A DNA stretch of 64,000 bases, taken from NCBI RefSeq assembly GCF_003205875.1, contig NZ_PUBZ01000089.1:1-64000 (forward strand). The letters are read 5' to 3'. Source of the stretch: Herpetosiphon llansteffanensis. Lineage in GTDB: Bacteria > Chloroflexota > Chloroflexia > Chloroflexales > Herpetosiphonaceae. This document shows, piece by piece, positions 21,628-40,041 of the stretch (its first letter is position 1; every line of letters starts with the position of its first letter). Below the pieces are notes generated by a model that saw only the letters and a list, made by a program, of their open reading frames with translations, did not search any database and was not told the DNA's origin. The translations under genes were made by a program, and so were the position numbers.

Positions 21628-22173
21628 TTACTGACCAGCAAGCAACAAACGGGCGAGGCGCTCACCGCCAACCAAATCGGCCAAATGGGCTAATTGGTTA
21701 TCTTCATAGGCTTGATTAAACAGCGCTACATCGAGGGCTAGCACTTTGCGGAAAGCAATAATTGCCTTGGCAGGGTCGCTACTCGTAGCGGAAATCTGCT
21801 CGCCACACGGCATAATAATATCCAGCATCGCCAACGGATAGCGCACAGGTAAACCGATACGTACATGAATTTCGCCAATTTTCAAGCGTTGCTGAGCATA
21901 CGCTTCATCATATGTCCCGCGAAACAAATCGCTAAACCATGTTCCCAGCATACCCGTCAAGCGTTCGACCGAAACGCCATCGAGATATTCAGCGGTCGCG
22001 GCGTGACCAAGCAAGCGCTTGTAAAACGCATCGGTAAAATCTTTGGTTTGGGCTTTGGCCTGCTCGTGTAAGCCGCCGAGTAATTGAGCTTCGGCAGCAG
22101 AAACATCCATCATTTTGACCAACTCGGTAAGAATGGCCGTGCCTTTCACGCCCCAACTTTGACGATCTGCCAT
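21628..22173 (-). CDS. Stand-alone sensor globin (protoglobin / globin-coupled-sensor globin domain)
   Basis: FTDAFYKRLLGHAATAEYLDGVSVERLTGMLGTWFSDLFRGTYDEAYAQQRLKIGEIHVRIGLPVRYPLAML matches the protoglobin consensus, including a proximal His in the IGxIHxRIGLP block. No output domain is fused. Confidence 0.65.
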   Translation of the reverse strand: MADRQSWGVKGTAILTELVKMMDVSAAEAQLLGGLHEQAKAQTKDFTDAFYKRLLGHAATAEYLDGVSVERLTGMLGTWFSDLFRGTYDEAYAQQRLKIGEIHVRIGLPVRYPLAMLDIIMPCGEQISATSSDPAKAIIAFRKVLALDVALFNQAYEDNQLAHLADLVGGERLARLLLAGQ

Positions 22174-22188
22174 GAGCTATCTCCTTGA

Positions 22189-22566
22189 TTAAGCACTCAT
22201 CAATTCGGCGATTGCCCGACCAGTTTCCCGCGCTTCAATCCGAATCATGCCAAGGTTGGCTTGTTGGCGCAAAATAATGGCCAAAATCATTTGAGTAGCT
22301 ACAGGCATAACCAAGAGATAGCCACTTTCGGCGTTTACAATGGCCTCGTTGGCCTTACCAATTTTCAAATCGTTGACCACGCGGGTCGTAACCCCCATCA
22401 TGGTGGCTGCAATCGCTCCCATGCGGTCGGCATTAACATCAGCCGACATGCGCGAGCTAATCAAAATCCCATCTGAACTAATTAATGCGGCCCCATTAAT
22501 ATCGTTACCGTTATTGGTAACCAATTGGCCTAAAATAGTATTAATTTGTTCCGAACGACTAGCCAT
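22189..22566 (-). CDS. Roadblock/LC7 (MglB-like) domain protein
   Basis: ~125 aa; ...GAALISSDGILISS..MGAIAATMMG..LVMPV... is typical of the Roadblock/LC7 fold. It overlaps the upstream GTPase by 8 nt. Confidence 0.7.
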   Translation of the reverse strand: MASRSEQINTILGQLVTNNGNDINGAALISSDGILISSRMSADVNADRMGAIAATMMGVTTRVVNDLKIGKANEAIVNAESGYLLVMPVATQMILAIILRQQANLGMIRIEARETGRAIAELMSA

Positions 22567-23134
22567 GCAAATGCTCCTTGTGAGTTACAGGCGAGGAGGA
22601 TGAATTTTGGGCTAAAACGTCGATTCGATCTAATAACGTTGAAATAACATCGCTTACCGCAGCATAATCAGTTGCCACGCAAGCGAGAATCGGAATATCG
22701 TTTGGTAGCCCTAAACGGCGGCGAATATACGTTGGCGGCAAGGCCCCAGGTAAATCTTGTTTGGTGGCGGCAACCACAAATGGCACGGGGGTCATGGCCG
22801 CGAAGCGTTCCAATACCACAATCGTCTCGTTAAAATGGGCTGGGCGACAGCTATCAACTAAAACAATATAGCCCAAACAACCTTCGGCTAAAATTTCCCA
22901 CATAAAATCAAACCGCTCTTGGCCTGGTGTACCAAATAAGAGCAGCCGTTGTTCGGCATCAATCGTCAACGTGCCGAAATCCAAACCAACCGTCGTATGA
23001 TGTTTAAGCTCTTTTTCTTCGACGTGGGTCACGGGAACATCAGTATCAACGACATCGATTTCGCTGACCGTGCGAATAAATTGCGATTTACCCGCAGCGT
23101 ATGCTCCCGTGATGACAATTTTATAATTGACCAT
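22559..23134 (-). CDS. Ras-superfamily small GTPase, MglA/Arf-like
   Basis: G1 ITGAYAAGKS, G3 LFGTPGQER (DxxG with Q), G4 ATKQDL, and a switch-I Thr in HHTTVGLDFG. Confidence 0.8.
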   Translation of the reverse strand: MVNYKIVITGAYAAGKSQFIRTVSEIDVVDTDVPVTHVEEKELKHHTTVGLDFGTLTIDAEQRLLLFGTPGQERFDFMWEILAEGCLGYIVLVDSCRPAHFNETIVVLERFAAMTPVPFVVAATKQDLPGALPPTYIRRRLGLPNDIPILACVATDYAAVSDVISTLLDRIDVLAQNSSSSPVTHKEHLHG

Positions 23135-23142
23135 TGTTACTC

Positions 23143-23841
23143 CTACGCACTAGCGCTGGTACGACGCAACCGCGCTTTGATCGCTTGAACCAACCCACGC
23201 ACGCGATTTTCAACCATATGCTCGGAGTTGGGGGCCATCAAAACTGGGCTAAGCGAACGCTGAGAAACAACAATCTCGCTAGACACCTCCACTAAGTTCA
23301 AGGCGATCAAACGGTGCAAGACGGTGAGGGTTTGATCGTAATTCCAACCAGTGGCTTCAACCAGTTCGGCCACACTTAATTCTTGGACCAATTGGCTCAA
23401 AATGCGCCAATCTTCGAGGGTCAGGGTGATGTCGCTGGCTTGGCTAAGCTTTGGCACCAAGCGCAAACGCGAGGTTGGCTGAAGTTTGGTCGTGCCAGCC
23501 AAGCGTTGTGGTTGGTCGCGGCGACGCAAGCCTTCAATAATCAGCCAATCAATTGAACGTTGAATTTGCACGCTGACCGTTTCTTGTGGGTTGGGTGGCA
23601 AAAAGACAAACTGGGCATCATCCCACGCCAGCATATCAAACACCGCTTGTTCACCACACGTTACCCGTTCGTGGGAGGTATTTTTGACCACCCCTGCATT
23701 GATAATCGCACCATCAAAAAACCACAACATCGCCTTGAATGGAGCATTCGCAATCAGTAGACGACCAGTTTTGCGCCCATGATGAAATACATGCATCAAA
23801 TCAATCAATGGCATATCAGCAAAATTACCTTCGAGAGCCAT
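23143..23841 (-). CDS. PATAN (DUF4388) domain protein
   Basis: N-terminal MALEGNFADMPLIDLMHVFHHGRKTGRLLI... is the DUF4388/PATAN signature. ATG 23841 has a GGAG RBS. The ORF-track extension to 23961 is probably non-coding. Confidence 0.65.
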   Translation of the reverse strand: MALEGNFADMPLIDLMHVFHHGRKTGRLLIANAPFKAMLWFFDGAIINAGVVKNTSHERVTCGEQAVFDMLAWDDAQFVFLPPNPQETVSVQIQRSIDWLIIEGLRRRDQPQRLAGTTKLQPTSRLRLVPKLSQASDITLTLEDWRILSQLVQELSVAELVEATGWNYDQTLTVLHRLIALNLVEVSSEIVVSQRSLSPVLMAPNSEHMVENRVRGLVQAIKARLRRTSASA

Positions 23842-24203
23842 AGCCGTCTCCTTTTTGCGCAGTACAACCAGTCGATGTTGTCTAGGTTTTGTCCATATTC
23901 TGTACAAAAATAATACATAACTGGAACAAATATATTTTCTAGCAGGCTTAAGTGCAGGCATCGACGTAAGAAAAATGACAACTCTATTATGGCCGCAACT
24001 GGATGTATCCGTCTATGATATGTCAATACTCTTTATGGCTATGCAGGGGTAAGGTGACTATTGGGATGGAAGTACTAGAAGACGTTTCCATGGAGAGGAG
24101 CGCAGGTATAACGTGCTAGGTTGATTGAACCATGCCTAAGAGGGGTTTGTCAAGATGGGATACAATAGCCACGATCTGCTGTTTTTTTAGTATTGAGGTT
24201 GTT

Positions 24204-24824
24204 ATGGGCTTACATGTATCATCGCATCCATTGGTTTTACATAAATTGGCGTTGCTGCGACGCGTTGAGAGCGAACCAAAGAAATTCCGCGAATTGGTGC
24301 GCGAAATCTCGCAATTTTTGGTCTACGAAGCAACTGCTGATATGCCGCTTGCGCCCTATACCATTCAAACCCCGTTGGGTTCGATGGAAGGCCATGCAAT
24401 TGGGGCGAGAATTGGCTTGATTCCAATTTTGCGCGCAGGCTTGGGCATGGTCGAGCCAGTGATTGACCTCTTGCCAACCGCCCATGTCTGGCACTTAGGC
24501 CTGTATCGCGACCATAACTCGCTTGAGCCAGTTACCTACTATAACAAATTGCCAGCTCAACCTGATATTGATGTGTGTTTGATTCTCGACCCAATGTTGG
24601 CAACTGGTGGCTCAGCAGTTGCTGCGGTGGATATTTTGAAGGCTTGGGGCGCTGCCAAGATTAAATTCTTGGGGTTAATCGCCGCACCTGAAGGGGTAGA
24701 ACGCTTGCAAACTGCTCACCCCGACGTGGAAATTCATTTGGCGGCGCTCGACGAACGATTGAACGAGCAAGGCTATATCGTGCCAGGCTTGGGCGATGCT
24801 GGTGACCGCCAATTTGGGACGTAG
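24204..24824 (+). CDS. upp: Uracil phosphoribosyltransferase
   Basis: [12 protein letters not shown].. and the PRPP-binding block [20 protein letters not shown]. Confidence 0.85.
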
Positions 24825-24830
24825 GCAAGA

Positions 24831-25811
24831 ATGCGCATTTTAGTCACTGGGGCAACTGGTTTTTTGGGTTCGCACACCGCTTTGGCACTGCACAAAGCTG
24901 GGCATACGGTACTAGGTTTGGGTCGCCGCTGGCAGCAGGTTCCGCAGCTTGTGAACGCTGGCATTCAGCCAATTACTGCTGATTTACGCGAGCGCGAGGC
25001 AGTGATTGCAGCCTGCGCTGGTTGCGATCTGGTGGTGCATAGCGGAGCACTTTCTACGCCGTGGGGCAGTCGCCGCGATTTTCAGGCAATTAATGTTGAT
25101 GGAACCGCGCATGTGCTGGCTGGTTGTGCTGCCCATAATGTTGGACGCTTGGTGTTTATCTCATCACCAAGCGTTCTCTCGAATGGCTACGATCAGCTAG
25201 ATTTAGTTGATACTGCGCCCTATCCGGCGCGGCCAATCTCGCTGTATTCAGCCAGCAAACAGCAGGCCGAGCAGCTGGTGTTGGCGCATACAACGCCAAG
25301 CGTCATTTTGCGGCCTAAGGCGATTTTTGGCGAAGGTGATCAAGCGTTGTTGCCACGAATTATTGCTGCGGCGCGGGCTGGGCGCTTACGTCAATTTGGC
25401 GATGGTCAAAATCTGGTTGATTTAACCTATGTTGAAAATGTGGTGCATGCGATTGAGCTGGCGTTAACCGCACCAGCAGCGCTTGGCAAGGCCTATACAA
25501 TCACCAACGCCGAACATCCGCAACTATGGGCGGTCATTCGGCGCGTGCTGACGGAGTTGGGCGTAAAGAGCGATTTGCGGCCCATGCCCTTGCCGGTGGC
25601 ATTGCTGATGGCGCGCATAATGGAAACAATCAGTTTGCTGACCCGCCGCGAGCCATTGTTGACGCGCTATAGCGTGCTGGCCTTGGCGCGGAGCCAAACC
25701 CATTCGATCGTGGCAGCCCAACACGATTTGGGCTATCAACCCCAAATTAGCCTTGAGCTTGGCATTCAACGCACAATCGCCGCCCTCAAACAGCCAACAA
25801 AGGTGGATTAA
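24831..25811 (+). CDS. NAD-dependent epimerase/dehydratase (extended SDR)
   Basis: MRILVTGATGFLGSH Rossmann motif and YxxxK (YSASKQQAE). Confidence 0.8.
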   Translation: MRILVTGATGFLGSHTALALHKAGHTVLGLGRRWQQVPQLVNAGIQPITADLREREAVIAACAGCDLVVHSGALSTPWGSRRDFQAINVDGTAHVLAGCAAHNVGRLVFISSPSVLSNGYDQLDLVDTAPYPARPISLYSASKQQAEQLVLAHTTPSVILRPKAIFGEGDQALLPRIIAAARAGRLRQFGDGQNLVDLTYVENVVHAIELALTAPAALGKAYTITNAEHPQLWAVIRRVLTELGVKSDLRPMPLPVALLMARIMETISLLTRREPLLTRYSVLALARSQTHSIVAAQHDLGYQPQISLELGIQRTIAALKQPTKVD

Positions 25812-26627
25812 ATGCAGGTTTTCTTGCTGGACACTGGAATTTGCCGCGTGCCCGAATATCATATGTTGCGCGATGGCAGCAGCCAAATTATCGATTGCCA
25901 TGCAGTTGTGGCCTTGATTGAGCATCCTCAGCGCGGTTGGGGCTTGTTTGATGTTGGGTATAGCCAAGCGATGCTCAGCGCCACCGAGCATTTGCCGTGG
26001 TCGCTCTATCGGCGGGCTACGCCACTGCGCTTATCGCCAGCGCTAGAAGTGATCAATCAACTGCCAAACTATGGCTTGAGCGCTGCTGATATTGGCTGGA
26101 TTGTGCTTTCGCACGCGCATGCCGACCACGTAGCCGCGTTGGCCGATTTTCCAGAGGCCGAGTTGTATCTTTCGGCGGCAGCGTTTGAGTTGGTCAGCCA
26201 AGTTCAGGGGATTAATGCCTTACGGCGGGGCATTATCCCAAGCTTATTCCCCCCAGATTGGCACCAACGTCTGCATTTAATTCATGCATTTAACGATCAG
26301 CCGTTGTTTGCCTTGGGCAATAGCCACGATTTGTTTGGCGATGGGCTATTGCGTTTGGTTGAATTACCCGGCCATGCGCGCGGCCAAATTGGCATGTATG
26401 TTGCCAATCAACGCCCAATCTTGCTGGCGGCAGATGGAGCGTGGCACTCGCGGGCGATTCGCGAACAAGTGCTGCCCCATCCAATCACCTATTTTATGAT
26501 CGACGATGCCAAAGCCATGGCAACGACCTTGGCGCGTTTGAGTGCTTTTGCCCAAGCCTATCCCGAGGTATTGATTGTGCCTTGCCACTGCCCAGAAATC
26601 TATGCTAGCGAGGTAGCCAAGGCATGA
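25812..26627 (+). CDS. MBL-fold metallo-hydrolase
   Basis: HxHxDH motif LSHAHADHV. Start and stop are coupled to the neighbouring genes. Confidence 0.75.
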   Translation: MQVFLLDTGICRVPEYHMLRDGSSQIIDCHAVVALIEHPQRGWGLFDVGYSQAMLSATEHLPWSLYRRATPLRLSPALEVINQLPNYGLSAADIGWIVLSHAHADHVAALADFPEAELYLSAAAFELVSQVQGINALRRGIIPSLFPPDWHQRLHLIHAFNDQPLFALGNSHDLFGDGLLRLVELPGHARGQIGMYVANQRPILLAADGAWHSRAIREQVLPHPITYFMIDDAKAMATTLARLSAFAQAYPEVLIVPCHCPEIYASEVAKA

Positions 26628-27922
26628 GTATCAGCGATATGGTGATTACAGGCGCGTATTTTGGGCGGGCGCGGTGGCGTTGGCGGCTGAATCGGCAGCG
26701 CTTGCGGGCTTTTCAAAATGCCAAGGCCCAGCAATTAATTCCATGGGTGGCTCAGCATTCGGCATTCTATCGCCAGCATTGGCATGGCCACGACCTGCGC
26801 GATTGGCGCAATTTGCCAACCGTCGATAAACGCTTGATGATGGCCAATTTCCGTGAATTCAATAGCTTGGAAGTGCCAGCAGCAGCGGCCTTCGATTTGG
26901 CGCAACAAGCAGAGCAAGAGCGTGATTTTGTGCCGCGCTTGGGCAATGTGACGGTTGGGCTTTCGTCGGGCACATCTGGCCATCGCGGCTTGTTTTTAAT
27001 AAGTGCTGCCGAGCAATTGTTTTGGGCTGGCACGCTGTTGGCGCGTACATTGCACCAAATCAAGCCAACCAAAATCGCCTTTTTCCTGCGTGCCAACAGC
27101 AATCTTTACCAACAATTGGGCGGGCGTTTGATTCAATTTCGCTATTTTGATTTGACTCAAGCGCTTGAGCCGCAACTTGAAATGCTTAATACGTACCAGC
27201 CAACAATTATCGTTGCGCCGCCTGCATTACTGCTGCAATTGCTCACGGCAGCGCAAAATGGTGAATTGAAGCATCGACCTGAGCGTATGATTAGCGTGGC
27301 CGATGCGTTGGCTCCAGATGAACAAGCGCAACTCAGCACGTTTTTTGGCATTCCAATCGAGCAAATCTATCAAGCAACCGAAGGTTTGCTCGCCATTTCG
27401 TGTGCGCACGGCAGTTTGCACATTCAAGAAGATTTGGTGGCGCTGGATTTTGAGGATTTGGGTCAAGACCGAGTTACACCGTATGTCACCGATTTGTGGC
27501 GACGCACCCAGCCGATTATTCGCTATCGCTTGAACGATGTGTTGCGCTTGAGTTCGCAGGCCTGCAGCTGCGGCAGCAGCTTCAAAGTAATTGAGCAAAT
27601 CGAGGGACGACGCGATGATATTTGCTACTTTACGGCCCATGGCCAGCGCCAAGCAATGTTCCCTGATAGCTTGCGCCGCGCCATTCTCCTAGCCCATCCA
27701 GCGATTCAAGAATATCAAATCATCCAGCCAGCAGACAACCAACTGCAAATTACGTTGACCGTGGCCAACGCAGTAGATCCTACAGTGGTTAGTACAGCAG
27801 TTGAGCAGCAGATTCAGCGCCAGCTAGCAGAATATGGTTGTAGCGATTATCATTTAAGCATCCATTTTGCAGCAATCGACTATGGTACGCTGAATAAACG
27901 GCGGCGTGTAATTCGCCAATGA
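26624..27922 (+). CDS. F390-synthetase/phenylacetate-CoA-ligase-like adenylate-forming enzyme
   Basis: ~430 aa PaaK/CapK-like. SSGTSGHRG P-loop-like motif and conserved YQATEG and RY..ND blocks. Confidence 0.6.
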   Translation: MSISDMVITGAYFGRARWRWRLNRQRLRAFQNAKAQQLIPWVAQHSAFYRQHWHGHDLRDWRNLPTVDKRLMMANFREFNSLEVPAAAAFDLAQQAEQERDFVPRLGNVTVGLSSGTSGHRGLFLISAAEQLFWAGTLLARTLHQIKPTKIAFFLRANSNLYQQLGGRLIQFRYFDLTQALEPQLEMLNTYQPTIIVAPPALLLQLLTAAQNGELKHRPERMISVADALAPDEQAQLSTFFGIPIEQIYQATEGLLAISCAHGSLHIQEDLVALDFEDLGQDRVTPYVTDLWRRTQPIIRYRLNDVLRLSSQACSCGSSFKVIEQIEGRRDDICYFTAHGQRQAMFPDSLRRAILLAHPAIQEYQIIQPADNQLQITLTVANAVDPTVVSTAVEQQIQRQLAEYGCSDYHLSIHFAAIDYGTLNKRRRVIRQ

Positions 27923-29172
27923 ACTATTGTATTTTGGCGCTTGGCTCGCGCGGCGATGTGCAGCCGTTTATCGCTTTGGCGCTTGGTTTGCAGGCTCAAG
28001 ACCATCAGGTTGTTATCGCCGCCGCCCACGATTATCGGGCGCTGGTCGAAGGCTATGGTTGCCGCTTTGCACCCTTGATTGGCTCGATTCAAGCCTTGCT
28101 TGACCCTGAGCAAATGGCAGCGGGCTTGGCAGCAGGTCGCGGTGCAATTATCAAGCAATTTTTGCAACAAACGCCGCCAATTATTCGCCAATTAATCGCC
28201 GATGCGCTGGCGGCCTGTCGTGATGCAGATTGTTTGATTGTGGCAAGTTTGGGCATCTGGCCAGCCTTACATCTCGCTGAGCATTTGCAAATTCCAGTGG
28301 TGGTGGTGCATATGCATCCGTATGGCGCTAGCAGCCAAACGGCGCATCATTTTATGCCCCAATTGACGTGGCCTGCCTATCGCCGCATGAGCTACCATTT
28401 GGCCGAACAGGTGCAATGGCAAGTGCTACGCATGGCCTTCAACCAAGCGCGGCAGCAGATTTTGCAACGGTCAAGTTTGAGCATTGGCCAACTTTGGCAA
28501 CGCAGTCGCCGGTTTCAGCCGCCAAGTTTGTATGCCTATAGCGCCTTGGTTGCGCCGCCGCCTGCAAATTGGCAGAACGCTGGCTCGATTACAGGCTATT
28601 GGATGCTCGAACCAGCATCACATTGGCAAGCTCCGGCAGCAGTGCGTGATTTTCTGGCAGCAGGCCCAGCGCCAATCGCCGTGAGTTTTGGCAGTATGAT
28701 TCATGGCCAACAGCGCGGTGCGGAATTAAGCCAATTGCTGATTGCAGCCAGCCAAAAAACCAACGTGCGCTTGATTATCAACCAAGGTTGGGGCGATTTG
28801 GGCCAAGGTCGGTTGCCAGCTAATTGCTTTGCAGCTAATGGCTTGGATTATGCTTGGCTGTTTGAGCGCGTTGCGGCGGTGGTGCATCATGGCGGCGCAG
28901 GCGTAAACGCAACCGCCTTGCACGCAGCCAAGCCTGCGTTGGTCACACCATTTTTGGGCGACCAATATTTTTGGGGCCAACGAATCTACGATTTAAAGGC
29001 TGGGCCAGCCCCTGTACCAGCCAATCGATTGCAGATCGATCGCTTGGCGCAGCTGTTACGCAGTCTGATTGAACGGACTGATTATCACCAAGCAGCCCAG
29101 CAGATCGCCAGCAAATTAGCCGCTGAGCATGGCGTACAGCAAGCCATCGACTGGCTACAGCAACGGTTTTGA
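27919..29172 (+). CDS. GT1-family glycosyltransferase (MGT/UDP-glucuronosyl-transferase-like)
   Basis: N-terminal GSRGDVQP motif and the C-terminal PSPG-like nucleotide-sugar motif VVHHGGAGVNATALHAAKPALVTPFLGDQYFW. Confidence 0.8.
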   Translation: MNYCILALGSRGDVQPFIALALGLQAQDHQVVIAAAHDYRALVEGYGCRFAPLIGSIQALLDPEQMAAGLAAGRGAIIKQFLQQTPPIIRQLIADALAACRDADCLIVASLGIWPALHLAEHLQIPVVVVHMHPYGASSQTAHHFMPQLTWPAYRRMSYHLAEQVQWQVLRMAFNQARQQILQRSSLSIGQLWQRSRRFQPPSLYAYSALVAPPPANWQNAGSITGYWMLEPASHWQAPAAVRDFLAAGPAPIAVSFGSMIHGQQRGAELSQLLIAASQKTNVRLIINQGWGDLGQGRLPANCFAANGLDYAWLFERVAAVVHHGGAGVNATALHAAKPALVTPFLGDQYFWGQRIYDLKAGPAPVPANRLQIDRLAQLLRSLIERTDYHQAAQQIASKLAAEHGVQQAIDWLQQRF

Positions 29173-29196
29173 ACTTTTTAATTACGAGGTAGTGTT

Positions 29197-30183
29197 ATGC
29201 AGTTTCCTCTGCGCATCGCCGGCATCGGCGCTTACGTTCCAGCAACCATCGTTACCACCAGCGACTTAGCCGAGCGCTTTGGGGTTGATCCGAGCATCAT
29301 TGAGCGCACCACCGGCATTACCGAGCGCCGTTATGCGGTGGAAGAAACTGCCTTGACGATGGCGGTTCAAGCCTCACAACAAGCGCTAGCCGATGCCAAG
29401 TACGAGCTTGATAGTATCGATTTGATTGTGGTGGCCGCTGCAGGCATGCATCAATACATTCCATGTACCGCTGCTTTGTTGCAAAAGGCTTTACAAGCGC
29501 CAGCTGGCCGGAGTGCATGTTTCGATTTAAATGCCACCTGTTTAAGTTTTCTGTTTGGCTTGCAATTGTTAGCACCCTTGATTGCCAGCGGAGTTTATAA
29601 GCGAGTGCTCTTGGTCAGCACCGAACGGGCTTCGGTTGCGCTCGATCCAAACGAATGGCAATCGACAGCCTTATTTGGTGATGCTGCTGCAGCCGTTATT
29701 TTAGAGCGTGGCGATGGCAGCAGCAGCCTAGAACATAGCCAATTTACAACATGGAGCAATGGCAGCGATTTGATTCAAATTCGCGGCGGTGGCTCAAACC
29801 AGCATCCCAACGCAGCTACTACCACGCCCGATATGAATTGGTTTTCGATGCAAGGGCCGTTAGCGTTTCGCTTTGTGTTCCGCGAGCTTCAGCAATTTGT
29901 AAAGCAATTTTTGGTCGATCTTGGCTGGCAAAACCACGAAGTCGATGCCTTGATTCCACATCAAGCCAACCGCCATGCCATTGAGCAAGTGCAAGTTCGC
30001 TTAGGCTTTACAGCGGATCAAGTGATTAGCAATTTTGCCAAACGTGGTAATTGTGTTGCTGCCTCAATTCCCTTGGCCTTGGCCGAAGCTGTCGCCGAGG
30101 GCCGCATTCAACGGGGCAATCGGCTGGTGTTGCTTGGCTCGGGTGCTGGCATTACTTTGGGCGTGGTGGCCTTGATTTACTAG
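29197..30183 (+). CDS. 3-oxoacyl-ACP synthase III (FabH-like, KAS III)
   Basis: Active-site Cys in CFDLNATCLSF, His (IPHQAN) and Asn (GNCVAAS), at FabH-family length. Confidence 0.8.
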   Translation: MQFPLRIAGIGAYVPATIVTTSDLAERFGVDPSIIERTTGITERRYAVEETALTMAVQASQQALADAKYELDSIDLIVVAAAGMHQYIPCTAALLQKALQAPAGRSACFDLNATCLSFLFGLQLLAPLIASGVYKRVLLVSTERASVALDPNEWQSTALFGDAAAAVILERGDGSSSLEHSQFTTWSNGSDLIQIRGGGSNQHPNAATTTPDMNWFSMQGPLAFRFVFRELQQFVKQFLVDLGWQNHEVDALIPHQANRHAIEQVQVRLGFTADQVISNFAKRGNCVAASIPLALAEAVAEGRIQRGNRLVLLGSGAGITLGVVALIY

Positions 30184-30192
30184 GAATTGGCG

Positions 30193-30939
30193 ATGGTTGT
30201 GTTGATTACTGGGGCTGGCACTGGCCTTGGTCAGGCGCTGGCGCTGGCCTTGGCCAAACGGGGTGCGACAATTATTTTGGTTGGTCGCCGCTCCGCAAAG
30301 TTGGCGCATAGTACTGGCTTGATTACCCAAGCAGGCGGCCAAGCTTGGCCAATTGTTTGCGATTTAAGCAATCAGCAGGCGGTGGAAGCACTCGCCAACC
30401 AGATTAAACAACGCTATCGGCAGCTCGATTTGGTCATTCATAATGCTGCAATCCTCGCTGGCGGAGCATTTGAACACCTGCCTGAAGAGCAAATTTTACC
30501 TGCAATTAATGCCAATTTAGTATCCCCAATTTGGCTTACCCGCCAACTCTTGCCCAAAGCAATCTTGATTGTTGGCAGCACCGTCAGCAGGGTTGCCATG
30601 CCCGGCGCAAGCCTGTATAGCCTGAGCAAAGCAGCGCTTGAGGCGTGGGCCTTGGCGCTCGCCGCCGAAACCACAATCAGGGTTGTGCGGGCCTATCCGC
30701 CTGCCAGCAAAACCGCCATGACTGCCGCCATGGCCAAACAAAGCGGCCACCGTTTTCCCCTAGCTGAGCCAAACCACGTAGGCGAGCACATTATTCGGCG
30801 CTACTTGGCTGGCGAAACCGAAATTATACTGAGTATCAATGATAAGTTAATTTTTTGGCTGCAACGCTACAGCCCAAAACTGCTCCAAGCGTTGCTCAAA
30901 CGCTTTCATCGACAATTGATCAAGCTTTGGAGCGCCTAG
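30193..30939 (+). CDS. Short-chain dehydrogenase/reductase
   Basis: VLITGAGTGLGQA Rossmann motif and YSLSKAA catalytic motif. ATG 30193 is chosen over the TTG at 30187. Confidence 0.8.
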   Translation: MVVLITGAGTGLGQALALALAKRGATIILVGRRSAKLAHSTGLITQAGGQAWPIVCDLSNQQAVEALANQIKQRYRQLDLVIHNAAILAGGAFEHLPEEQILPAINANLVSPIWLTRQLLPKAILIVGSTVSRVAMPGASLYSLSKAALEAWALALAAETTIRVVRAYPPASKTAMTAAMAKQSGHRFPLAEPNHVGEHIIRRYLAGETEIILSINDKLIFWLQRYSPKLLQALLKRFHRQLIKLWSA

Positions 30940-31011
30940 CCCAAGCAATTTGACAAACCCAACCCAGCCGACTACAATTGCCGCCTTGTTGATACTTAAT
31001 ATCAATAAATA

Positions 31012-32583
31012 ATGAAGAAAGGTTTGGCAATGCGGCGTTTTGGTGCTCAGCTTTCAGGGCTGATTCTGCTTCTCCATCTGTTAATCGCCTGTGGATCAAC
31101 CAGCGAAACAGCTCAAACAACAACATCGACGAATGCAACGACCGAGCAAACGGCCAATTCCAACGGCGTATTGCGAATTGGTACTGGTATCAATTTGCCA
31201 GTTGGCTTGGATGTAGCCCAAGGCTCAACTGGCTACAACATGGTGACCTATGGTGCAGGCGAAACCTTGATGCGCTTTACCGCCGATAATAAACTTGAGC
31301 CGTGGTTGGCCGAAAGCGTTAGCCCAATCGATGCCACGACGTGGCAAATTAAATTGCGCCAAGGCGTGCGCTTTCACGATGGCAGCGAACTTAAGGCCAG
31401 CGATGTGGTTACTTCATTCAATAGCAGCTGGCAAAACCTGAGTGCCGCCAAAAACTTCATTCCTGCAGATAGCAAAACCACAGTGATTGATGATTACACC
31501 CTCAACTTGAGCACCAGCCAAGCTGAAGGCAGCGTGCCCTATAGCCTTGCCAACTGGAATTTCGTCATTCACAAGCCTGCGGTCAATGGCGTTTCAGTTT
31601 TGACCGGCATGTATCAGCCAATCAGCCTCGAAAAAGACCAAGAATTGGTGCTCGAACGCTTTGCCAACTATTGGGATGGTCAGGCAGGCCTACAAAAAAT
31701 TAGCGTCAAGAAAATTCCCGATGCCAATGCCCGTTCTTTGGCCTTGCAAAGCGGCGATTTGGATATGTTGACCAACGTCGCGCCGGATCTGGCCAGCGGC
31801 CTACCAGCAGATATTGAGCTTCAGAGCGTTGCTGGCACGCGCATGCATTATGTTATGTTAGATAGTGCCTATCCGCCATTCGATGATCGTTTGGTGCGTC
31901 AAGCGCTGAGTTTAGCAATTGATCGCAAAGCCTTATTGCAAGCAACGCTTGATGGCCAAGGCGCAGTGGCAACCAACCTCTATCCAGCAAGTGTTGGGAT
32001 TGAACTGGTCGAAGCCCAAATCTTTGATCCAACCCAAGCTGCCACATTGCTTGACCAAGCAGGCTGGGTTGTGGGCAGCGATGGCATGCGCAGCAAAAAT
32101 GGCCAAGCGCTCGCCTTTACCCTGCACAGCTACCCGGGCCGGGCCGAACTAACCTTGATGGCAATCGCGATTCAAGCCCAATTGAAAGACCTTGGGATTG
32201 CCGTCGAAGTCAAGGAAGTAACCGATATTGGCGAAATCGTCGAAAAAGGCAACTTCAACGCCAGTATGTATTCAATCGGTACCTCGCCAGATCCCCAATA
32301 CACGGTTGGCACGACGCTGATCAAGGGTGCGGCCTACAACTACGCTGGCTATAGCAACCCAGCGATTGAAAGCGCCTTTGCAGAGCTACGCGCCGAGCAA
32401 GATCACGCCAAACGGATCGCGATTGCCAAGCAGATTCAAACCGAGGTCAAAAACGATCCGGTGAATGTGTATCTTGCCAGCCCACCGCTGATTACGGCCT
32501 ATCGCAAGGGCAGCCTCAGTGGCTATGTGCCCAATCCAAATGATGTCTATTTGATCACCAAGGAATTGAAACTCAATCAATGA
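31012..32583 (+). CDS. ABC transporter substrate-binding lipoprotein (family 5, peptide/nickel/opine type)
   Basis: Lipobox LLIACGS and SBP_bac_5 topology. Confidence 0.8.
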   Translation: MKKGLAMRRFGAQLSGLILLLHLLIACGSTSETAQTTTSTNATTEQTANSNGVLRIGTGINLPVGLDVAQGSTGYNMVTYGAGETLMRFTADNKLEPWLAESVSPIDATTWQIKLRQGVRFHDGSELKASDVVTSFNSSWQNLSAAKNFIPADSKTTVIDDYTLNLSTSQAEGSVPYSLANWNFVIHKPAVNGVSVLTGMYQPISLEKDQELVLERFANYWDGQAGLQKISVKKIPDANARSLALQSGDLDMLTNVAPDLASGLPADIELQSVAGTRMHYVMLDSAYPPFDDRLVRQALSLAIDRKALLQATLDGQGAVATNLYPASVGIELVEAQIFDPTQAATLLDQAGWVVGSDGMRSKNGQALAFTLHSYPGRAELTLMAIAIQAQLKDLGIAVEVKEVTDIGEIVEKGNFNASMYSIGTSPDPQYTVGTTLIKGAAYNYAGYSNPAIESAFAELRAEQDHAKRIAIAKQIQTEVKNDPVNVYLASPPLITAYRKGSLSGYVPNPNDVYLITKELKLNQ

Positions 32584-33530
32584 GTACGCTGATTCGCCAA
32601 ATTGCTGGGCGCTTGCTAAGCGGGCTGATCGTCCTATGGATGGTCAGCGTGCTGGCTTTTCTGATTATTCATGCAGCTCCAGGCGACCCAGCCCGAATGC
32701 TGTTGAATGCCAATGGCCTTGATGCACCGCCAGTCGAAGCGGTCGAGGCCAAACGCCGCGAGCTTGGCCTTGATCAGCCGTTGCTCAAGCAATATAGCAA
32801 TTGGATTGGCGGCATTGTGCAGGGCAATTTTGGCAACAGCTACCATTCGGGCAAGCCAGTTTGGCTACTGTATCGTGAGCGTCTGCCAGCAACCTTGCTG
32901 ATGGCAGGCTTGGCGTTGACGCTCTCGCTGGGCATTGCAATTCCCTTGGGCTTGCTCAGTGCAATCAAACGCCACAGTTTGTTGGATCATGCGGCGCAAC
33001 TGATAGCGGTCATCGGGGCGGCGATTCCTGGCTTTTGGATTGCCTTGGTGCTGATTTTAGTCTTTGCTGCCAAACTACGTTGGTTGCCAGCCTTGGGGAG
33101 CGCCACATTTAAAGGTATGTTGCTGCCAGCAATCATCTTGGCCTTGCCCAATATTGCCCTAACCTCGCGGCTCGTGCGCGCTACGACGCTCGATGTGCTA
33201 AATCAACAATACATCGTGACTGCGCGGGCCAAAGGTCGCTCGGAACATGGCTTGTTATTTGCCCATGCCTTGCCCAATGTTGCTGCCAGTTTGATCACCC
33301 CCATTAGCCTTGAAATAGCGTTTTTGCTCACAGGAACGGTGATTATCGAGCATGTTTTTGCCTATCCTGGGATTGGGCGCATGGCTGTTGAGGCAGCGTT
33401 AATTGGCGATATGCCAGTTTTGGGCTTGGCGGTGTTGATTGCAGGAGGAATCTATGTTATCGCTAACTGGTGCGCTGACCTCGGCATGGCAGCGCTTGAC
33501 CCACGGCTCCGCCAACATCGCCAAAGCTAA
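32580..33530 (+). CDS. ABC transporter permease (DppB/OppB-like)
   Basis: EAA-like motif and 6 TM helices. The start overlaps the SBP gene stop. Confidence 0.8.
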   Translation: MSTLIRQIAGRLLSGLIVLWMVSVLAFLIIHAAPGDPARMLLNANGLDAPPVEAVEAKRRELGLDQPLLKQYSNWIGGIVQGNFGNSYHSGKPVWLLYRERLPATLLMAGLALTLSLGIAIPLGLLSAIKRHSLLDHAAQLIAVIGAAIPGFWIALVLILVFAAKLRWLPALGSATFKGMLLPAIILALPNIALTSRLVRATTLDVLNQQYIVTARAKGRSEHGLLFAHALPNVAASLITPISLEIAFLLTGTVIIEHVFAYPGIGRMAVEAALIGDMPVLGLAVLIAGGIYVIANWCADLGMAALDPRLRQHRQS

Positions 33531-34362
33531 GCAGGATGATGAGCAACGCGCCAAGCAGCAGTTGAGCCGAATTGGTCGCGTGGCTGCTGGAATGTTGCTG
33601 CTCATGGTTGTGGCTGTCAGTATTGGGCCATTATTTTGGCAGGTCGATCCGCTGGCGCAACATATTGGGCAACGGTTGAATCCGCCCTCATTGAGCAATC
33701 CACTTGGCACCGATCAATTTGGGCGCGATGTTTTAGCCCGAATCTTGATTGGCGGACGTTGGTCGTTAGCGGGAGCGGCCTTGGTCTGTCTTGGCACAAG
33801 TTGTTTAGGCTTGGCAATTGGCGCATGCTGCGCCTTGGGGCCGCGTTGGTTGGATTATCTGCTGAGCCGCATGACCGAAACTTTGCAAGCAATTCCGGCA
33901 GTGTTATTGGCCTTGGCGCTGAGCGCGATTCTCTCACGCTCGTTTGGCAATTTGCTGCTGGCGTTGGTGCTGACCAATTGGACGTGGTATGCCCGCATGT
34001 ATCGGGCCTTGATCATGAAAGAATTGGCAATGCCCTATATCGAAGGTGCGCAGGTCATTGGAGTCAAGCCGCTGGCGATTCTAACCCGACATGTGCTGCC
34101 CAACCTCTTTGGTGCGCTTGTTGTGGTTGCTACGACCAATTTTGGCAGCGTGATTTTGAATCTCTCGGCGCTCTCGTTTATTGGCTTTGGCCTCAACCCA
34201 CCAACGCCTGAATGGGGCAATTTGATCAACGAATCGCGGACATTTTTTCAACGTGAGCCACGCCTGATGATCATTCCAGGCTTATGCATCGCCACAACTG
34301 TGCTTTGGATCAATCTCTTGGGCAATGCCCTGCGCGACCGCGTAGATCTTGATAAAACGTAG
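33439..34362 (+). CDS. ABC transporter permease (DppC/OppC-like)
   Basis: Typical DppC C-terminus. The start is uncertain and overlaps the previous gene by up to 90 nt. No ATPase gene follows. Confidence 0.7.
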   Translation: MQEESMLSLTGALTSAWQRLTHGSANIAKAKQDDEQRAKQQLSRIGRVAAGMLLLMVVAVSIGPLFWQVDPLAQHIGQRLNPPSLSNPLGTDQFGRDVLARILIGGRWSLAGAALVCLGTSCLGLAIGACCALGPRWLDYLLSRMTETLQAIPAVLLALALSAILSRSFGNLLLALVLTNWTWYARMYRALIMKELAMPYIEGAQVIGVKPLAILTRHVLPNLFGALVVVATTNFGSVILNLSALSFIGFGLNPPTPEWGNLINESRTFFQREPRLMIIPGLCIATTVLWINLLGNALRDRVDLDKT

Positions 34363-36875: not shown

Positions 36876-37355
36876 GTGAACGAGAAAACAAGTCTCGCGA
36901 ATGTGCGCCAAAACGACGCTGGACGCATCGAGGTACATTCTCGCGCCATTGCTACTGTGGTAGCCGGAGCGGTAGTGCGGTGCTACGGCGTTGTGGGCAT
37001 GGCCCCGCGCAACTTACGCGATAGTGTCGCCCATGTGTTGCGACCAGAAGATCAATATAAAGGTATTGACGTGCAAGTCAGTAGCGAGGCAATTAACATC
37101 GATCTGTTTGTGATCATCGAGTATGGCACACGGATTGCCACGGTTGCCCGTAATATTATGGAAACGGTTCAGTACGCGGTTGTGCATGCACTTGGCGAGG
37201 CCAATATTACGGTCAATGTGCATGTTCAGGGCCTGCGAATTGAGCAAGCAGACAAAGAACCAACAAAAGATGCAACCGAAGGCCAGCCCAGCCGCTGGCG
37301 ACGTTTTGGCGTAATGGGAGGTCTGCGTGGACAGCGCACCGAAGAATCAAATTGA
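36876..37355 (+). CDS. Asp23/Gls24-family (alkaline shock protein-like, DUF322)
   Basis: Asp23-family block IEVHSRAIATVVAGAVVRCYGVVGM...INIDLFVIIEYGTRIATVARNIMETVQYAV. GTG 36876 has a GAGGA RBS; upstream ORF-track sequence (36699-36875) is treated as leader. Confidence 0.7.
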   Translation: MNEKTSLANVRQNDAGRIEVHSRAIATVVAGAVVRCYGVVGMAPRNLRDSVAHVLRPEDQYKGIDVQVSSEAINIDLFVIIEYGTRIATVARNIMETVQYAVVHALGEANITVNVHVQGLRIEQADKEPTKDATEGQPSRWRRFGVMGGLRGQRTEESN

Positions 37356-38964
37356 TGGCACTCGGCTGTTGGCGGTTTTTCGCGCAGCCGCAGCGTGGTT
37401 TAGCCAGAATGTGGCAACTGTCAACGCGCTCAATGTGTTTCCTGTGCCCGATGGCGATACAGGAACCAACATGAACCTTACGCTGACAGCGGCGCTCAAG
37501 GATGTGCAGGATGATGCCTCGGTCGCTGTGGTGGCCGAACGAGTCTATCGCGGGGCTTTGATGGGCGCTCGCGGCAACTCTGGCGTGATTCTTTCGCAAA
37601 TTCTGCGTGGGCTTTCGCAGGGTATGGCAGGCCAGCAGGTTTGCACGCCCGAAATCTTGGTTGCGGCCTTAGAACAAGCCTCAACCACTGCCTACAAAGC
37701 GGTGATCAAGCCAGTCGAAGGCACGATGCTCACGGTTATTCGCGAAACCAGCGAAGCTGCACGGGCAGGCTTTAAGCCAGAGATGAACTGGCACGAAGTG
37801 CTTGATTTAATTGTTAAAGGTGCACGGGTTTCGGTCGATAATACGCCTAACCTGATGAAAATGTTACGCGATGCTGGCGTGGTCGATGCTGGTGGCGAGG
37901 GATTGTATGTGCTCTTCGAGGGCGCGCAGGCATTTGCCCGTGGCGAAAAACTTGAACAACGAGTTGCGCCAGTCGATCAATTGGCCATGGCCTTTGACGA
38001 TATTCATAGCGATGACGATTTTGGCTATTGCACCAACTTTATGATCCAAGGCGAAGACATCCCGTACGAAGATGTCCGACGCACAATTGCCGAAATGGGC
38101 ACGTCGGTGGTTGCTGTTGGCGATGAGCGTTTGGTCAAGGTGCATTTGCACACCTTGCGGCCTGGCGATGCGCTCAATTATGCCGTGCAATGGGGCAGCC
38201 TTGGGGCGATTGAAATTACCAATATGGATAAACAGCGCAGCGATCTGCATGAGGCCAAAGCCCAACAAGCCAGCCAACCAGCGCGGGTTAAACCCGATGA
38301 GCCGGTGAGCGATGTTGGGGTGGTCGCGGTTGCGCCTGGCCAAGGCTTCCGCGAGCTGTTTGAATCGTTAAATGTTGGCGAAGTGGTCACTGGCGGCCAA
38401 ACTATGAATCCATCGATTCAAGATTTGGTGACGGCAATCGAGAAATTGCCTCAGCCAGCGGTCGTGGTTTTGCCAAACAATAGCAATGTGATTTTGGCAG
38501 CGCAACAAGCGCAACAATTAACCAATAAAGTTGTGCATGTGATTCCAACCAAAACTGTGCCGCAAGGCATGGCGGCAATGTTTGCCTTTAATTATGCGGT
38601 TGGCGCTGAGGAAAATGTGCAGGCTATGAGCCGCGCAATTAAAGCTATTACCACGGCGGAAATTACGACTGCTGTGCGCGATGCTACCGTAAATGATGTT
38701 GAAGTGCGCGATGGCCAAACGATTGGCTTGCTCAACGGCGCACTGGTTGAATCTGGCGATCAGCCCGACGACGTGATTGATCGCATCTTAGCCCGGATGG
38801 ATTTGGACGACCATGAGATCGTTACCATCTATTATGGCGAACAATGTTCGGCGGAACAGGCTGAAACACTAGCCCACAAAATCAACGCAACCTACCCTGC
38901 GCTTGATGTTGAGGTGCAAAACGGCGGACAACCATTTTATGATTACATTCTCTCTGCGGAGTGA
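37327..38964 (+). CDS. DAK2-domain fusion protein YloV/FakA-like (fatty-acid kinase ATP-binding subunit-like)
   Basis: Dak2 motif DGDTGTNM, at YloV-family length, with a GTG start overlapping the asp23 end. Confidence 0.8.
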   Translation: MDSAPKNQIDGTRLLAVFRAAAAWFSQNVATVNALNVFPVPDGDTGTNMNLTLTAALKDVQDDASVAVVAERVYRGALMGARGNSGVILSQILRGLSQGMAGQQVCTPEILVAALEQASTTAYKAVIKPVEGTMLTVIRETSEAARAGFKPEMNWHEVLDLIVKGARVSVDNTPNLMKMLRDAGVVDAGGEGLYVLFEGAQAFARGEKLEQRVAPVDQLAMAFDDIHSDDDFGYCTNFMIQGEDIPYEDVRRTIAEMGTSVVAVGDERLVKVHLHTLRPGDALNYAVQWGSLGAIEITNMDKQRSDLHEAKAQQASQPARVKPDEPVSDVGVVAVAPGQGFRELFESLNVGEVVTGGQTMNPSIQDLVTAIEKLPQPAVVVLPNNSNVILAAQQAQQLTNKVVHVIPTKTVPQGMAAMFAFNYAVGAEENVQAMSRAIKAITTAEITTAVRDATVNDVEVRDGQTIGLLNGALVESGDQPDDVIDRILARMDLDDHEIVTIYYGEQCSAEQAETLAHKINATYPALDVEVQNGGQPFYDYILSAE

Positions 38965-39008
38965 TACACAGCCCCGTTTCTGACGGCGCGATGGAGATAT
39001 GTTGGGTT

Positions 39009-39857
39009 ATGGCGCGAGTAAAGATTATTACCGATAGCACTGCTGATATTCCACCAGCCTTGGCACAAGAGCTGAACATCACCGTGATTCCAATTCATGT
39101 GCATTTTGGTGATCAGACGTTGCGAGCTGGAATCGACATTAGCAACGAGCAGTTTTATCGGCGGATGGCCGAGGGTGGGCCGTATCCTTATACGACTGCA
39201 CCAGCACCAGGAGTGTTTGAACAGTATTATCGTCAATTTTCCCGTGAATATGACGGGGTCTTTTCAATTCACTTGTCGAATCGCTTTGGCGGCGTAGTTA
39301 AATCGGCAACGATTGCCCGCGATAAATTGCCAGCCTCGCTGACGCGGGTTGAGGTCATCGATAGCACCTCGACCTCGTTGGGTTTGGGTATGGTAGCAAT
39401 CGCCGCAGCGCGGGCAGCACTCGATGGCGCATCACTTGATGAAGTGCATCGCACTGTGATGCAAACTATTCAATTGACCCACGTGGTGTTTTTTGTCGAT
39501 TCAATTGATTATCTTGAACGTAGCGGGCGTTTATCGCAAGCCTCGGCAATGCTTGGCTCGATGCAACGAATCAAGCCTTTGCTGATTCTTGATGATGGTG
39601 AAATTGTGCCCTACGATCGCACCCGCACGCGAGCCAAAGCAATTGAAGGCTTATTTACCTTTATTGAGGATTTCCCCAAAGTCGAGCAGGTAGCAATTAT
39701 GCACAGCACCACGCCCGATGATGTGGAAAAATTGCTTGAGAAGATCGACCCGATCTATCCTCGCGATCAGGTCATGATTGTGGAATATGGGCCAGCGCTT
39801 GGCGCACATCTTGGGCCAAATGCAATGGGTGTCGTGGTTTACGAAGGTGTCGAGTAA
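39009..39857 (+). CDS. DegV-family fatty-acid-binding protein (FakB-like)
   Basis: N-terminus KIITDSTADIP and the DegV fold blocks. Confidence 0.8.
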   Translation: MARVKIITDSTADIPPALAQELNITVIPIHVHFGDQTLRAGIDISNEQFYRRMAEGGPYPYTTAPAPGVFEQYYRQFSREYDGVFSIHLSNRFGGVVKSATIARDKLPASLTRVEVIDSTSTSLGLGMVAIAAARAALDGASLDEVHRTVMQTIQLTHVVFFVDSIDYLERSGRLSQASAMLGSMQRIKPLLILDDGEIVPYDRTRTRAKAIEGLFTFIEDFPKVEQVAIMHSTTPDDVEKLLEKIDPIYPRDQVMIVEYGPALGAHLGPNAMGVVVYEGVE

Positions 39858-40041
39858 GCCAGCGCCGCCAAGCAACTGCGCAGCAACCAATCAATAAACC
39901 AAAGCAATACCCCACGCAGCGCCATTTTCGGCTATTATACGGCTGCGTGGGGTAGCTATTCCCTTAGCGAGCAGGGTGCTGGCAGTGTCGCCGAACGCCG
40001 CTCGCTACGATTTGGCTAAAATAAAGCCAGAAGGAGGCCAA

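Follow-up and report, generated by a model that had tools for sequence, protein, structure and literature searches.

A conserved four-gene condensation cassette in a putative glycolipid-type biosynthetic operon of Herpetosiphon llansteffanensis

The DNA analysed here (the window) is a 64,000-nt stretch of contig NZ_PUBZ01000089.1 of Herpetosiphon llansteffanensis, and gene positions refer to it unless a locus of another genome is named. The element under study is a block of six genes on the plus strand (24831-30939), described in an earlier reading of the letters (the original prediction) as an operon for a glycosylated small molecule. An open reading frame (ORF) check recovered the six genes at exactly the positions first given, with all the near-contiguous or overlapping junctions quoted for them, and the family assignments of the six proteins were upheld by Pfam and NCBIfam. 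They are designated RED (reductase), MBL (metallo-beta-lactamase-fold hydrolase), ADE (adenylate-forming enzyme), GT1 (family-1 glycosyltransferase), KAS (beta-ketoacyl-acyl carrier protein synthase III, or KAS III, fold) and SDR (short-chain dehydrogenase/reductase), as listed in Table 1. The TAA stop of RED abuts the ATG of MBL at 25811/25812, and ATGA overlaps join MBL to ADE (26624-26627) and ADE to GT1 (27919-27922). A 24-nt spacer with GAGG is located 5' of KAS and a gap of 3 nt 5' of SDR, whose start may be either the TTG at 30187 or the in-frame ATG at 30193. As predicted, the block directly follows upp, the co-oriented RED starting 6 nt after the upp end.

No terminator-like site was detected inside the six-gene block. 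The best promoter-like site of the region, a near-consensus sigma-70-like sequence (30950-30978, TTGACA-17-TACAAT, 11/12 match), is found immediately 3' of the SDR stop, ahead of a nickel/oligopeptide-type ABC transporter (31012-34362, plus strand). Both mark the 3' boundary of the operon. With no internal terminator and the best promoter-like site after SDR, upp and the six genes most likely form one transcription unit. As judged from this layout, upp is probably co-transcribed with the six genes, yet stands outside the conserved cassette described below; its adjacency to the cassette was seen only within the genus Herpetosiphon. The genes from upp to the transporter are all syntenic in H. 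aurantiacus, H. geysericola and H. giganteus, and ADE is 96% identical to Herpetosiphon llansteffanensis ADE and 80% to that of H. aurantiacus. Given this genus-wide synteny and the recurrence of the core genes across phyla, the gene arrangement is far beyond chance. The transporter itself, made of an SBP5 substrate-binding protein and two permeases, is syntenic only within Herpetosiphon.

Table 1. Genes of the operon, the preceding upp gene and a detached trio in the window
Gene	Position	Strand	Assignment	Remarks
upp	24132-24824	+	uracil phosphoribosyltransferase	NF001097 265 bits (cutoff 114)
RED	24831-25811	+	extended SDR, 3beta-HSD/OleD-like NAD(P)-dependent ketoreductase	core gene 1
MBL	25812-26627	+	di-metal metallo-beta-lactamase-fold hydrolase, lactonase branch	core gene 2
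ADE	26624-27922	+	PaaK-type ANL adenylate-forming enzyme, 'F390 synthetase-related protein'	core gene 3
GT1	27919-29172	+	sterol-glucosyltransferase-like family-1 glycosyltransferase	accessory, Chloroflexia/Armatimonadota variant
KAS	29197-30183	+	KAS III-fold ketosynthase, CorB/MxnB clade	core gene 4
SDR	30187-30939	+	classical short-chain dehydrogenase/reductase	accessory, after KAS in Chloroflexia
abH	4483-5508	-	alpha/beta-hydrolase-like	first gene of detached trio
GT21a	3317-4483	-	GT21/GT2-type, HpnI-like glycosyltransferase	detached trio
GT21b	2131-3411	-	second GT21/GT2-type, HpnI-like glycosyltransferase, membrane-anchored	detached trio; true start probably near 3324 instead of the TTG at 3411

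Conservation of the cluster was followed in a scan of one genome per species, in which at least 586 species genomes carried an ADE relative; at 50% identity, the ADE family falls into 486 clusters (E<=1e-30). Linkage was counted by tblastn of the window proteins against 81 loci, 79 of them from the scan and two added, and many of the loci analysed come from metagenome-assembled genomes (MAGs). Homologues were not scattered: MBL was found directly upstream of ADE in 74 of 79 testable loci, RED upstream in 63 of 72, and a KAS III gene within the block in 51 of 53, where it closely follows ADE or closely precedes RED. GT1 was present on the same strand in only 13/53 loci and SDR in 15/53. These counts mark four genes (RED, MBL, ADE and KAS), and not six, as the evolutionary unit, with GT1 and SDR as lineage-specific additions to this core, here called the cassette. 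The predicted operon was thereby retained, while its six genes as a conserved unit were not. The core spans about ten phyla. It was identified in Chloroflexota (Herpetosiphonaceae, other Chloroflexia, Ktedonobacteria), Armatimonadota, Gemmatimonadota, Deinococcota, Acidobacteriota, Planctomycetota, Bacillota, Cyanobacteriota and Pseudomonadota, with Chamaesiphon and B. brevis genomes among its carriers, and annotated records place it on plasmids of Bacillus mycoides and Paenibacillus urinalis. A Meiothermus locus holds MBL-ADE only.

On the megaplasmid pMPPla107 of Pseudomonas amygdali pv. lachrymans, an ADE homologue (37% identity; locus L092, 7890-9188) is solitary: RED, MBL and KAS are absent around it and its neighbours are dozens of hypothetical proteins, so that not all members of its family, TIGR02304, are in cassettes. 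An origin of the cassette from a mobile element was considered and rejected, as no near-identical DNA was found on plasmids.

Of the three core enzymes that precede KAS, RED had been called an epimerase. The superfamily was confirmed (Pfam Epimerase 134 bits, 3Beta_HSD 122 bits), and the label can be refined to a ketoreductase of the OleD/3beta-hydroxysteroid dehydrogenase (3beta-HSD) type. Its top NCBIfam match is OleD (2-alkyl-3-oxoalkanoate reductase) with 238 bits over the full length, against an OleD equivalog cutoff of 580, followed by HpnA as the next unrelated family with 109 bits. The nearest PDB entry is human NSDHL, a sterol-4-carboxylate 3-dehydrogenase (6jkg, 93 bits), and both the TGxxGFxG motif and the Ser...YxxxK signature are at least 95% conserved across 64 homologues.

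The hydrolase assignment of MBL was confirmed and could be refined to the lactonase branch of its fold. The top NCBIfam match is AttM-type lactonase with 72.8 bits over the full length, below the cutoff of 390, and MBL is assigned to a separate, unnamed subfamily instead of a named equivalog such as AttM. When a family profile of 21 sequences was searched against the PDB, the top 18 matches were all lactone hydrolases, including an N-acyl homoserine lactone (AHL) lactonase (9khq, 95 bits over the full length), 4-pyridoxolactonase, AiiB, GcL and AiiA; PqsE and glyoxalase II were both absent at E<=0.01. The di-metal site (H101, H103, D105, H106, H188, D208, H259), with its HxHxDH motif and distal His/Asp/His, is invariant in the 21 sequences.

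ADE matched TIGR02304 'F390 synthetase-related protein' with 386.8 bits (cutoff 251.9), in agreement with the F390-synthetase-like adenylating enzyme first proposed. The ANL adenylate-forming core motifs are present in a PaaK-like two-domain fold, which was upheld by a structure search that gave no hint of the substrate. No OleC family was found among its NCBIfam matches, and public annotations are all generic ('F390 synthetase-related protein') or carry the misnomer 'adenylate cyclase'.

The cassette KAS is labelled 'beta-ketoacyl-ACP synthase III' in public records, ACP denoting acyl carrier protein. In the PDB it scored 199 bits with CorB and 188 bits with MxnB, at 33-35% identity, 168 bits with the best FabH (Aquifex) and 86 bits with PqsD, and it matched OleA structures over the C-terminal residues 241-325 only (~72 bits). 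Catalytic residues Cys115, His255 and Asn285 are kept in 63/63 cassette KAS. A motif N[AS][TS]CL[SG]F and a GGG[ST]-containing insertion are common to cassette KAS, CorB and MxnB, while FabH carries A[AV]C[AS]GF in place of the motif and the insertion is absent from Aquifex FabH. KAS scored 236.8 with TIGR00747 (fabH), below the cutoff of 292.1, and passed the broad KAS III subfamily PRK09352 (265 against a cutoff of 249). In a neighbour-joining tree with 200 bootstraps and three FabH outgroups (E. coli, Aquifex and 4ryb), FabH was split from all cassette KAS and CorB/MxnB in 200/200 replicates. In 169/200, CorB and MxnB grouped with some of the cassette KAS, and the cassette KAS as a whole were monophyletic without them in only 29/200. 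By these comparisons KAS falls in the CorB/MxnB clade and is not the housekeeping FabH, an identity which would have spoken against the original prediction.

CorB and MxnB catalyse the C-C coupling of two long (beta-keto)acyl chains, followed by release through lactonisation (PMC5724707), and form a group distinct from PpyS and OleA (PMC4578411). As stand-alone alpha-pyrone-forming ketosynthases of corallopyronin and myxopyronin, they share with the cassette KAS the KAS III fold, the Cys-His-Asn triad, NA[ST]CLSF and the GGG[ST] insertion. They differ in that they belong to trans-acyltransferase (trans-AT) polyketide synthase (PKS)/nonribosomal peptide synthetase (NRPS) clusters and act on carrier-bound beta-ketoacyl chains, whereas the cassette KAS has a reductase, an MBL of the lactonase type and a PaaK-type ligase as its fixed partners. 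Carrier proteins (tblastn with AcpP; phosphopantetheine-site motif) and PKS or NRPS genes were detected neither in the window nor in any locus examined, and the window and the ~88 loci surveyed were likewise free of fab and acp genes. Since no carrier protein is encoded, the substrates of KAS are presumably CoA esters or acyl-ACPs of the fatty acid synthase.

The distinction from FabH is also evident in E. coli, where the cassette is part of a seven-gene, translationally coupled chromosomal island between narI and tRNA-Tyr genes, present in 674 of 5,426 complete genomes (12%). The island codes for a KAS III-like protein, an NAD(P) oxidoreductase, an MBL, an F390-related protein, a PAP2 phosphatase, a sterol-desaturase-family protein and an acyl-CoA desaturase, as in the urinary isolate E. 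coli UPEC 26-1 (NZ_CP016497, 1473450-1480331; locus L093, 3001-9882). Its core proteins are 32-36% identical to those of the window. The genuine fabH of E. coli is located in plsX-fabH-fabD, and the KAS at narI-tyrT, which carries the same signatures as other cassette KAS, is 28% identical to that FabH. One PLSDB 'plasmid' record carrying the island (NZ_CP141085) has the gene content of a chromosome (narGHJI, purU, rssAB).

The two accessory enzymes of the Herpetosiphon operon were considered next to the core. GT1 consists of a Glyco_transf_28 N-terminal domain and an EryCIII-like_C domain (Pfam). Its nearest PDB entry is the yeast sterol 3beta-glucosyltransferase UGT51 (159 bits, residues 3-412, E 2e-45), with which it aligns over the full length; the glycopeptide glycosyltransferases GtfA/B reached ~71 bits. 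Of the 'macrolide/sterol-type' label only the sterol part could be kept, the macrolide or antibiotic type being outscored twofold. An N-terminal GSRGDxQP motif and a C-terminal nucleotide-sugar motif are conserved in 15 orthologues, and GT1 is placed between ADE and KAS in 13 loci. SDR was recognised by Pfam as adh_short (130 bits); its NCBIfam matches are to generic SDR families only, all below cutoff. Positional orthologues with 34-37% identity are found directly after KAS in nine other Chloroflexia loci.

In six Chloroflexia loci the gene order is RED-MBL-ADE-GT1-KAS-SDR-hydrolase-GT21-GT21. The same ordered trio of hydrolase and two glycosyltransferases is present in the window on the minus strand (2131-5508), so that the Herpetosiphon cluster appears to be split into two loci ~19 kb apart. 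The trio is translationally coupled, with a TAATG stop/start overlap between abH and GT21a. abH is 29-36% identical to the alpha/beta-hydrolase right after SDR in loci L017, L025, L030, L031, L038 and L040, and gave a weak NCBIfam match to the 3-oxoadipate enol-lactonase PcaD. GT21a and GT21b matched Pfam Glyco_transf_21 with 73.8 and 103.7 bits, respectively (gathering cutoff 21.7), and HpnI was the top NCBIfam match of both (100.2 bits each, below the cutoff of 310). GT21a shares 40-48% identity with the first member of the GT21 pairs linked to the cluster in Chloroflexia and Armatimonadota, which occur in the same order, and GT21b 52-57% with the second; GT21b also has two 19-aa stretches that are strongly hydrophobic (Kyte-Doolittle values of 2.9 and 2.0). 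Identities of the trio to its cluster-linked counterparts equal or exceed those of GT1 and SDR. From this synteny, the abH-GT21-GT21 trio very probably belongs to the same pathway as the operon. Kinship of GT1 with UGT51, and of the GT21 pair with GT21 enzymes of the HpnI/ceramide-glucosyltransferase type, is set against two differences: the HpnI scores are well under the cutoff, and the cassette is not linked to sterol, hopanoid or sphingolipid biosynthesis genes.

Accessories were searched for more widely by clustering all genes contiguous with the core. Recurrent among them are the classical SDR, the GT1 between ADE and KAS, and an alpha/beta-hydrolase, which accompanies the cluster in 8-10 loci. 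GT21-type glycosyltransferases, often paired and with HpnI (hopanoid glycosyltransferase) as top family match, also recur, as do an ATP-grasp protein (NCBIfam PRK06849, 'hypothetical protein'), a GNAT/Fem-like protein of ~385 aa, EamA or HlyD exporters and a DegT aminotransferase. Bacillota carry the ATP-grasp and GNAT/Fem-like tailoring enzymes, and the E. coli accessories are the phosphatase and the two desaturase/hydroxylase-type proteins of the island. Among 43 non-redundant loci with enough flank, the glycosyltransferase set (sterol-GT-like/HpnI-like) was found in 20, the ATP-grasp/GNAT set in 7 and both together in none. This mutual exclusion fits alternative decorations of one scaffold, and the kinds of enzymes involved (sterol-GT-like, HpnI-like, PAP2, desaturase) point to a lipid as the product.

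Two variants were observed beside these sets. In a Herpetosiphonaceae MAG (locus L021, 10438-16179), the core is extended by ATP-grasp-like and GNAT-like proteins and a Rieske/VanA-type oxygenase. The locus also encodes a 765-aa fusion protein with an N-terminal CDP-alcohol phosphatidyltransferase domain, which suggests a phospho-alcohol head group. In a Gemmatimonadota MAG (locus L057, 5936-9586), an apparent 1216-aa ORF fuses ADE with ATP-grasp-like and GNAT/Fem-like parts; if real, this may be Rosetta-stone evidence of joint action, and an assembly or frameshift artefact is possible as well.

We consider it likely that the locus is a biosynthetic operon for a glycosylated lipid-like product, built around a conserved Claisen-condensation cassette. 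The glycosylated fatty-acyl- or polyketide-derived molecule, such as a glycolipid, of the original prediction is consistent with everything found here, as a product deduced from the genes. A mechanism can be proposed as well: if each core enzyme is interpreted through the closest relative that has been characterised, the steps join into a coherent chemical sequence. ADE, as a PaaK-type ligase, would use ATP to activate a carboxylic acid, in the simplest case as its CoA thioester. KAS would then couple two chains, acyl or beta-ketoacyl, in a Claisen condensation, and lactonisation would free the product as an enol-lactone of the 4-hydroxy-2-pyrone type. The lactonase-type MBL would open this ring to a 2-substituted 3,5-dioxo acid, which is of the substrate class of OleD and hence fits RED. 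The OleD-like RED would reduce the 3-oxo group and the extra SDR the second keto group, and GT1 and the two HpnI-like membrane GT21 enzymes would glycosylate the hydroxyls to yield a glycolipid. Alternatively, ADE may act last, on the free acid. To the whole reading (one operon, a four-gene core with lineage tailoring, and a glycosylated lipid-like metabolite made by this mechanism) we assign a probability of roughly 0.45; the particular order of the steps is a tentative proposal, and rather doubtful.

Several points weigh against this reading. The order of steps was derived from nearest characterised relatives at no more than 30-40% identity. KAS keeps the His-Asn pair used by FabH in decarboxylative condensation, which together with the PRK09352 score leaves room for ordinary malonyl-dependent extension. 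CorB and MxnB take carrier-protein-bound chains in a PKS context, which this cassette is without. It is unusual for a biosynthetic pathway to form a lactone and hydrolyse it at once, and PaaK-type ligases mostly use small or aryl acids, not long fatty acids. The KAS tree was built by neighbour-joining and has only three FabH outgroups. The functional tie of the trio to the operon would come from synteny in other genomes, and neither tailoring set was found nearby in 16 of the 43 loci.

Malonyl-dependent extension is the basis of an alternative modelled on Pqs enzymes. ADE would supply an acyl-CoA, KAS would condense it decarboxylatively with malonyl-CoA or malonyl-ACP to a beta-ketoacyl thioester, MBL would act as thioesterase to free the beta-keto acid and RED would give a 3-hydroxy acid, to be glycosylated in the manner of rhamnolipids. 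In the alkylquinolone pathway of Pseudomonas, PqsA-PqsD-PqsE likewise pair a CoA ligase and a condensing enzyme of the KAS III fold with an MBL-fold hydrolase that works on what the condensation yields, and PqsE is an established precedent of an MBL-fold thioesterase. The triad with its decarboxylation residues is intact in all 63 KAS, and the window KAS passes PRK09352 and reaches 168 bits with Aquifex FabH. RED resembles a beta-keto-acid reductase, and a PaaK-type CoA ligase suits the activation of a starter. On the other side, KAS groups with CorB/MxnB and not with FabH (200/200), and its 86 bits with PqsD are low; the cassette is without anthranilate chemistry and PqsBC. The MBL profile recovered lactonases and neither PqsE nor glyoxalase II at E<=0.01, which leaves a PqsE-type thioesterase role of MBL unsupported. 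We regard this route as unlikely.

An Ole-like pathway, with KAS as OleA, RED as OleD, ADE as OleC, and MBL or the alpha/beta-hydrolase as OleB or beta-lactone hydrolase, was weighed against the same data. It would lead to a beta-lactone, an olefin or a mycolic-type 2-alkyl-3-hydroxy acid, the last of which could be glycosylated. The four-part make-up mirrors OleABCD one to one, and the clusters of OleABCD, NltABCD (nocardiolactone) and LstABCD (lipstatin) also unite a thiolase-fold condensing enzyme, an extended-SDR reductase, an ANL enzyme and a hydrolase. OleD is by far the best match of RED, at full length; an alpha/beta-hydrolase is found beside the cluster in 8-10 loci and, in the window, within the detached trio, and ANL enzymes such as OleC can form beta-lactones. 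Yet the 238 bits of RED are far under the equivalog cutoff of 580, KAS matches OleA over the C-terminal ~85 residues only, and the short ADE is of the PaaK type, with no OleC family among its NCBIfam matches. OleB has an alpha/beta-hydrolase fold and not that of MBL, olefins have no hydroxyl to glycosylate, and the cassette has glycosyltransferases or head-group enzymes attached. Membership in the canonical Ole pathway was rejected, as KAS, ADE and the hydrolase fail and RED alone resembles its counterpart. The Ole-like scheme in its wider sense is improbable.

A catabolic function, in which MBL would open lactones (AHLs, pyrones or others), RED oxidise the resulting hydroxy acid, ADE make the CoA ester and the thiolase-fold KAS cleave it, appears highly improbable. 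The nearest relatives of MBL are quorum-quenching and catabolic lactonases, 3beta-HSD-type enzymes often run oxidatively, and abH weakly resembles the catabolic PcaD. The cassette is linked, however, to glycosyltransferases, ATP-grasp/GNAT ligases, desaturases and exporters (EamA, HlyD) and not to uptake or beta-oxidation genes, and we know of no KAS III-clade enzyme which acts thiolytically. Finally, that KAS is the housekeeping FabH with accidental neighbours next to upp, as its public label and canonical triad could suggest, is effectively refuted by the TIGR00747 score, the tree, the absence of fab/acp genes from the window and loci, the four-gene linkage across about ten phyla and the coexistence with plsX-fabH-fabD in E. 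coli.

Two more specific products were considered for the preferred glycolipid-type pathway. Long-chain 1,2-diol glycolipids occur in Thermomicrobium, Roseiflexus and Thermus (PMC2615216, PMC3504966). A link to these lipids found no support: the cassette is without an oxygenase, and no cultured Roseiflexus or Chloroflexus was among the 120 best matches of a query with a Roseiflexaceae-MAG ADE. A carotenoid-glycoside ester, the 'pigment ester' of the original prediction, was set aside, as it leaves KAS, MBL, RED and ADE unexplained and no carotenoid genes are linked.

The enzyme superfamilies are familiar, and the logic of the cassette (condense, reduce, activate, hydrolyse, glycosylate) resembles known pathways. 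Neither the cassette, nor TIGR02304, nor the E. coli island was described in the literature searched (full-text, open-access only), in keeping with the earlier statement that the cluster matches no obvious textbook pathway.

Other features of the window were noted on the way. Upstream of upp, on the minus strand (21628-23961), a protoglobin, an MglB-like Roadblock/LC7 protein, a small MglA-like GTPase of the Ras/Arf type and a PatA_N-domain protein were assigned by synteny with the Pfam-annotated H. aurantiacus locus; as assigned, they are a polarity/motility-type GTPase module of a gliding filamentous bacterium. On the plus strand, 37327-40875 holds a FakA-like fatty-acid kinase subunit (Dak2 and FakA_C) followed by two ORFs of ~298 aa, which may be candidate DegV/FakB fatty-acid-binding subunits. 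A 586-aa ORF (55931-57691, plus strand) in a patch of 35% GC, compared with ~51% in the rest of the window, codes for an OLD/GajA/AriA-type ABC-ATPase (Pfam AAA_21 and AAA_15) with PADLOC scores of 80 bits for Old, 80 for NsnB, 73 for AriA and 67 for GajA. This ORF is probably a defence gene gained by horizontal transfer, and the methyltransferase beside it (54651-55766) gave a weak PADLOC match to mad2.

A wider reading of the cassette, which we put forward as a possibility of modest likelihood, is that RED-MBL-ADE-KAS form a PKS-independent pathway to a new class of two-chain, head-to-head-condensed polar lipids, and are the source of myxobacterial CorB and MxnB. The head group would be glycosylated in Herpetosiphon, amino-acylated in Bacillota, and dephosphorylated and desaturated in E. 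coli. If true, hundreds of species, soil Chloroflexota and E. coli strains among them, would possess a compact means of joining two acyl chains that needs no carrier protein, and the chemistry of bacterial membranes or surfaces would gain a class of lipids or glycolipids whose product has never been seen. It would also give the antibiotic ketosynthases CorB and MxnB an evolutionary origin, and a function to families so far 'hypothetical', namely TIGR02304, the PRK06849 ATP-grasp proteins and the unnamed lactonase-like MBL subfamily. As the cassette occurs naturally in E. coli, it is directly open to genetics and lipidomics. Its breadth, its presence in E. coli and its kinship with CorB/MxnB make it a worthwhile target.

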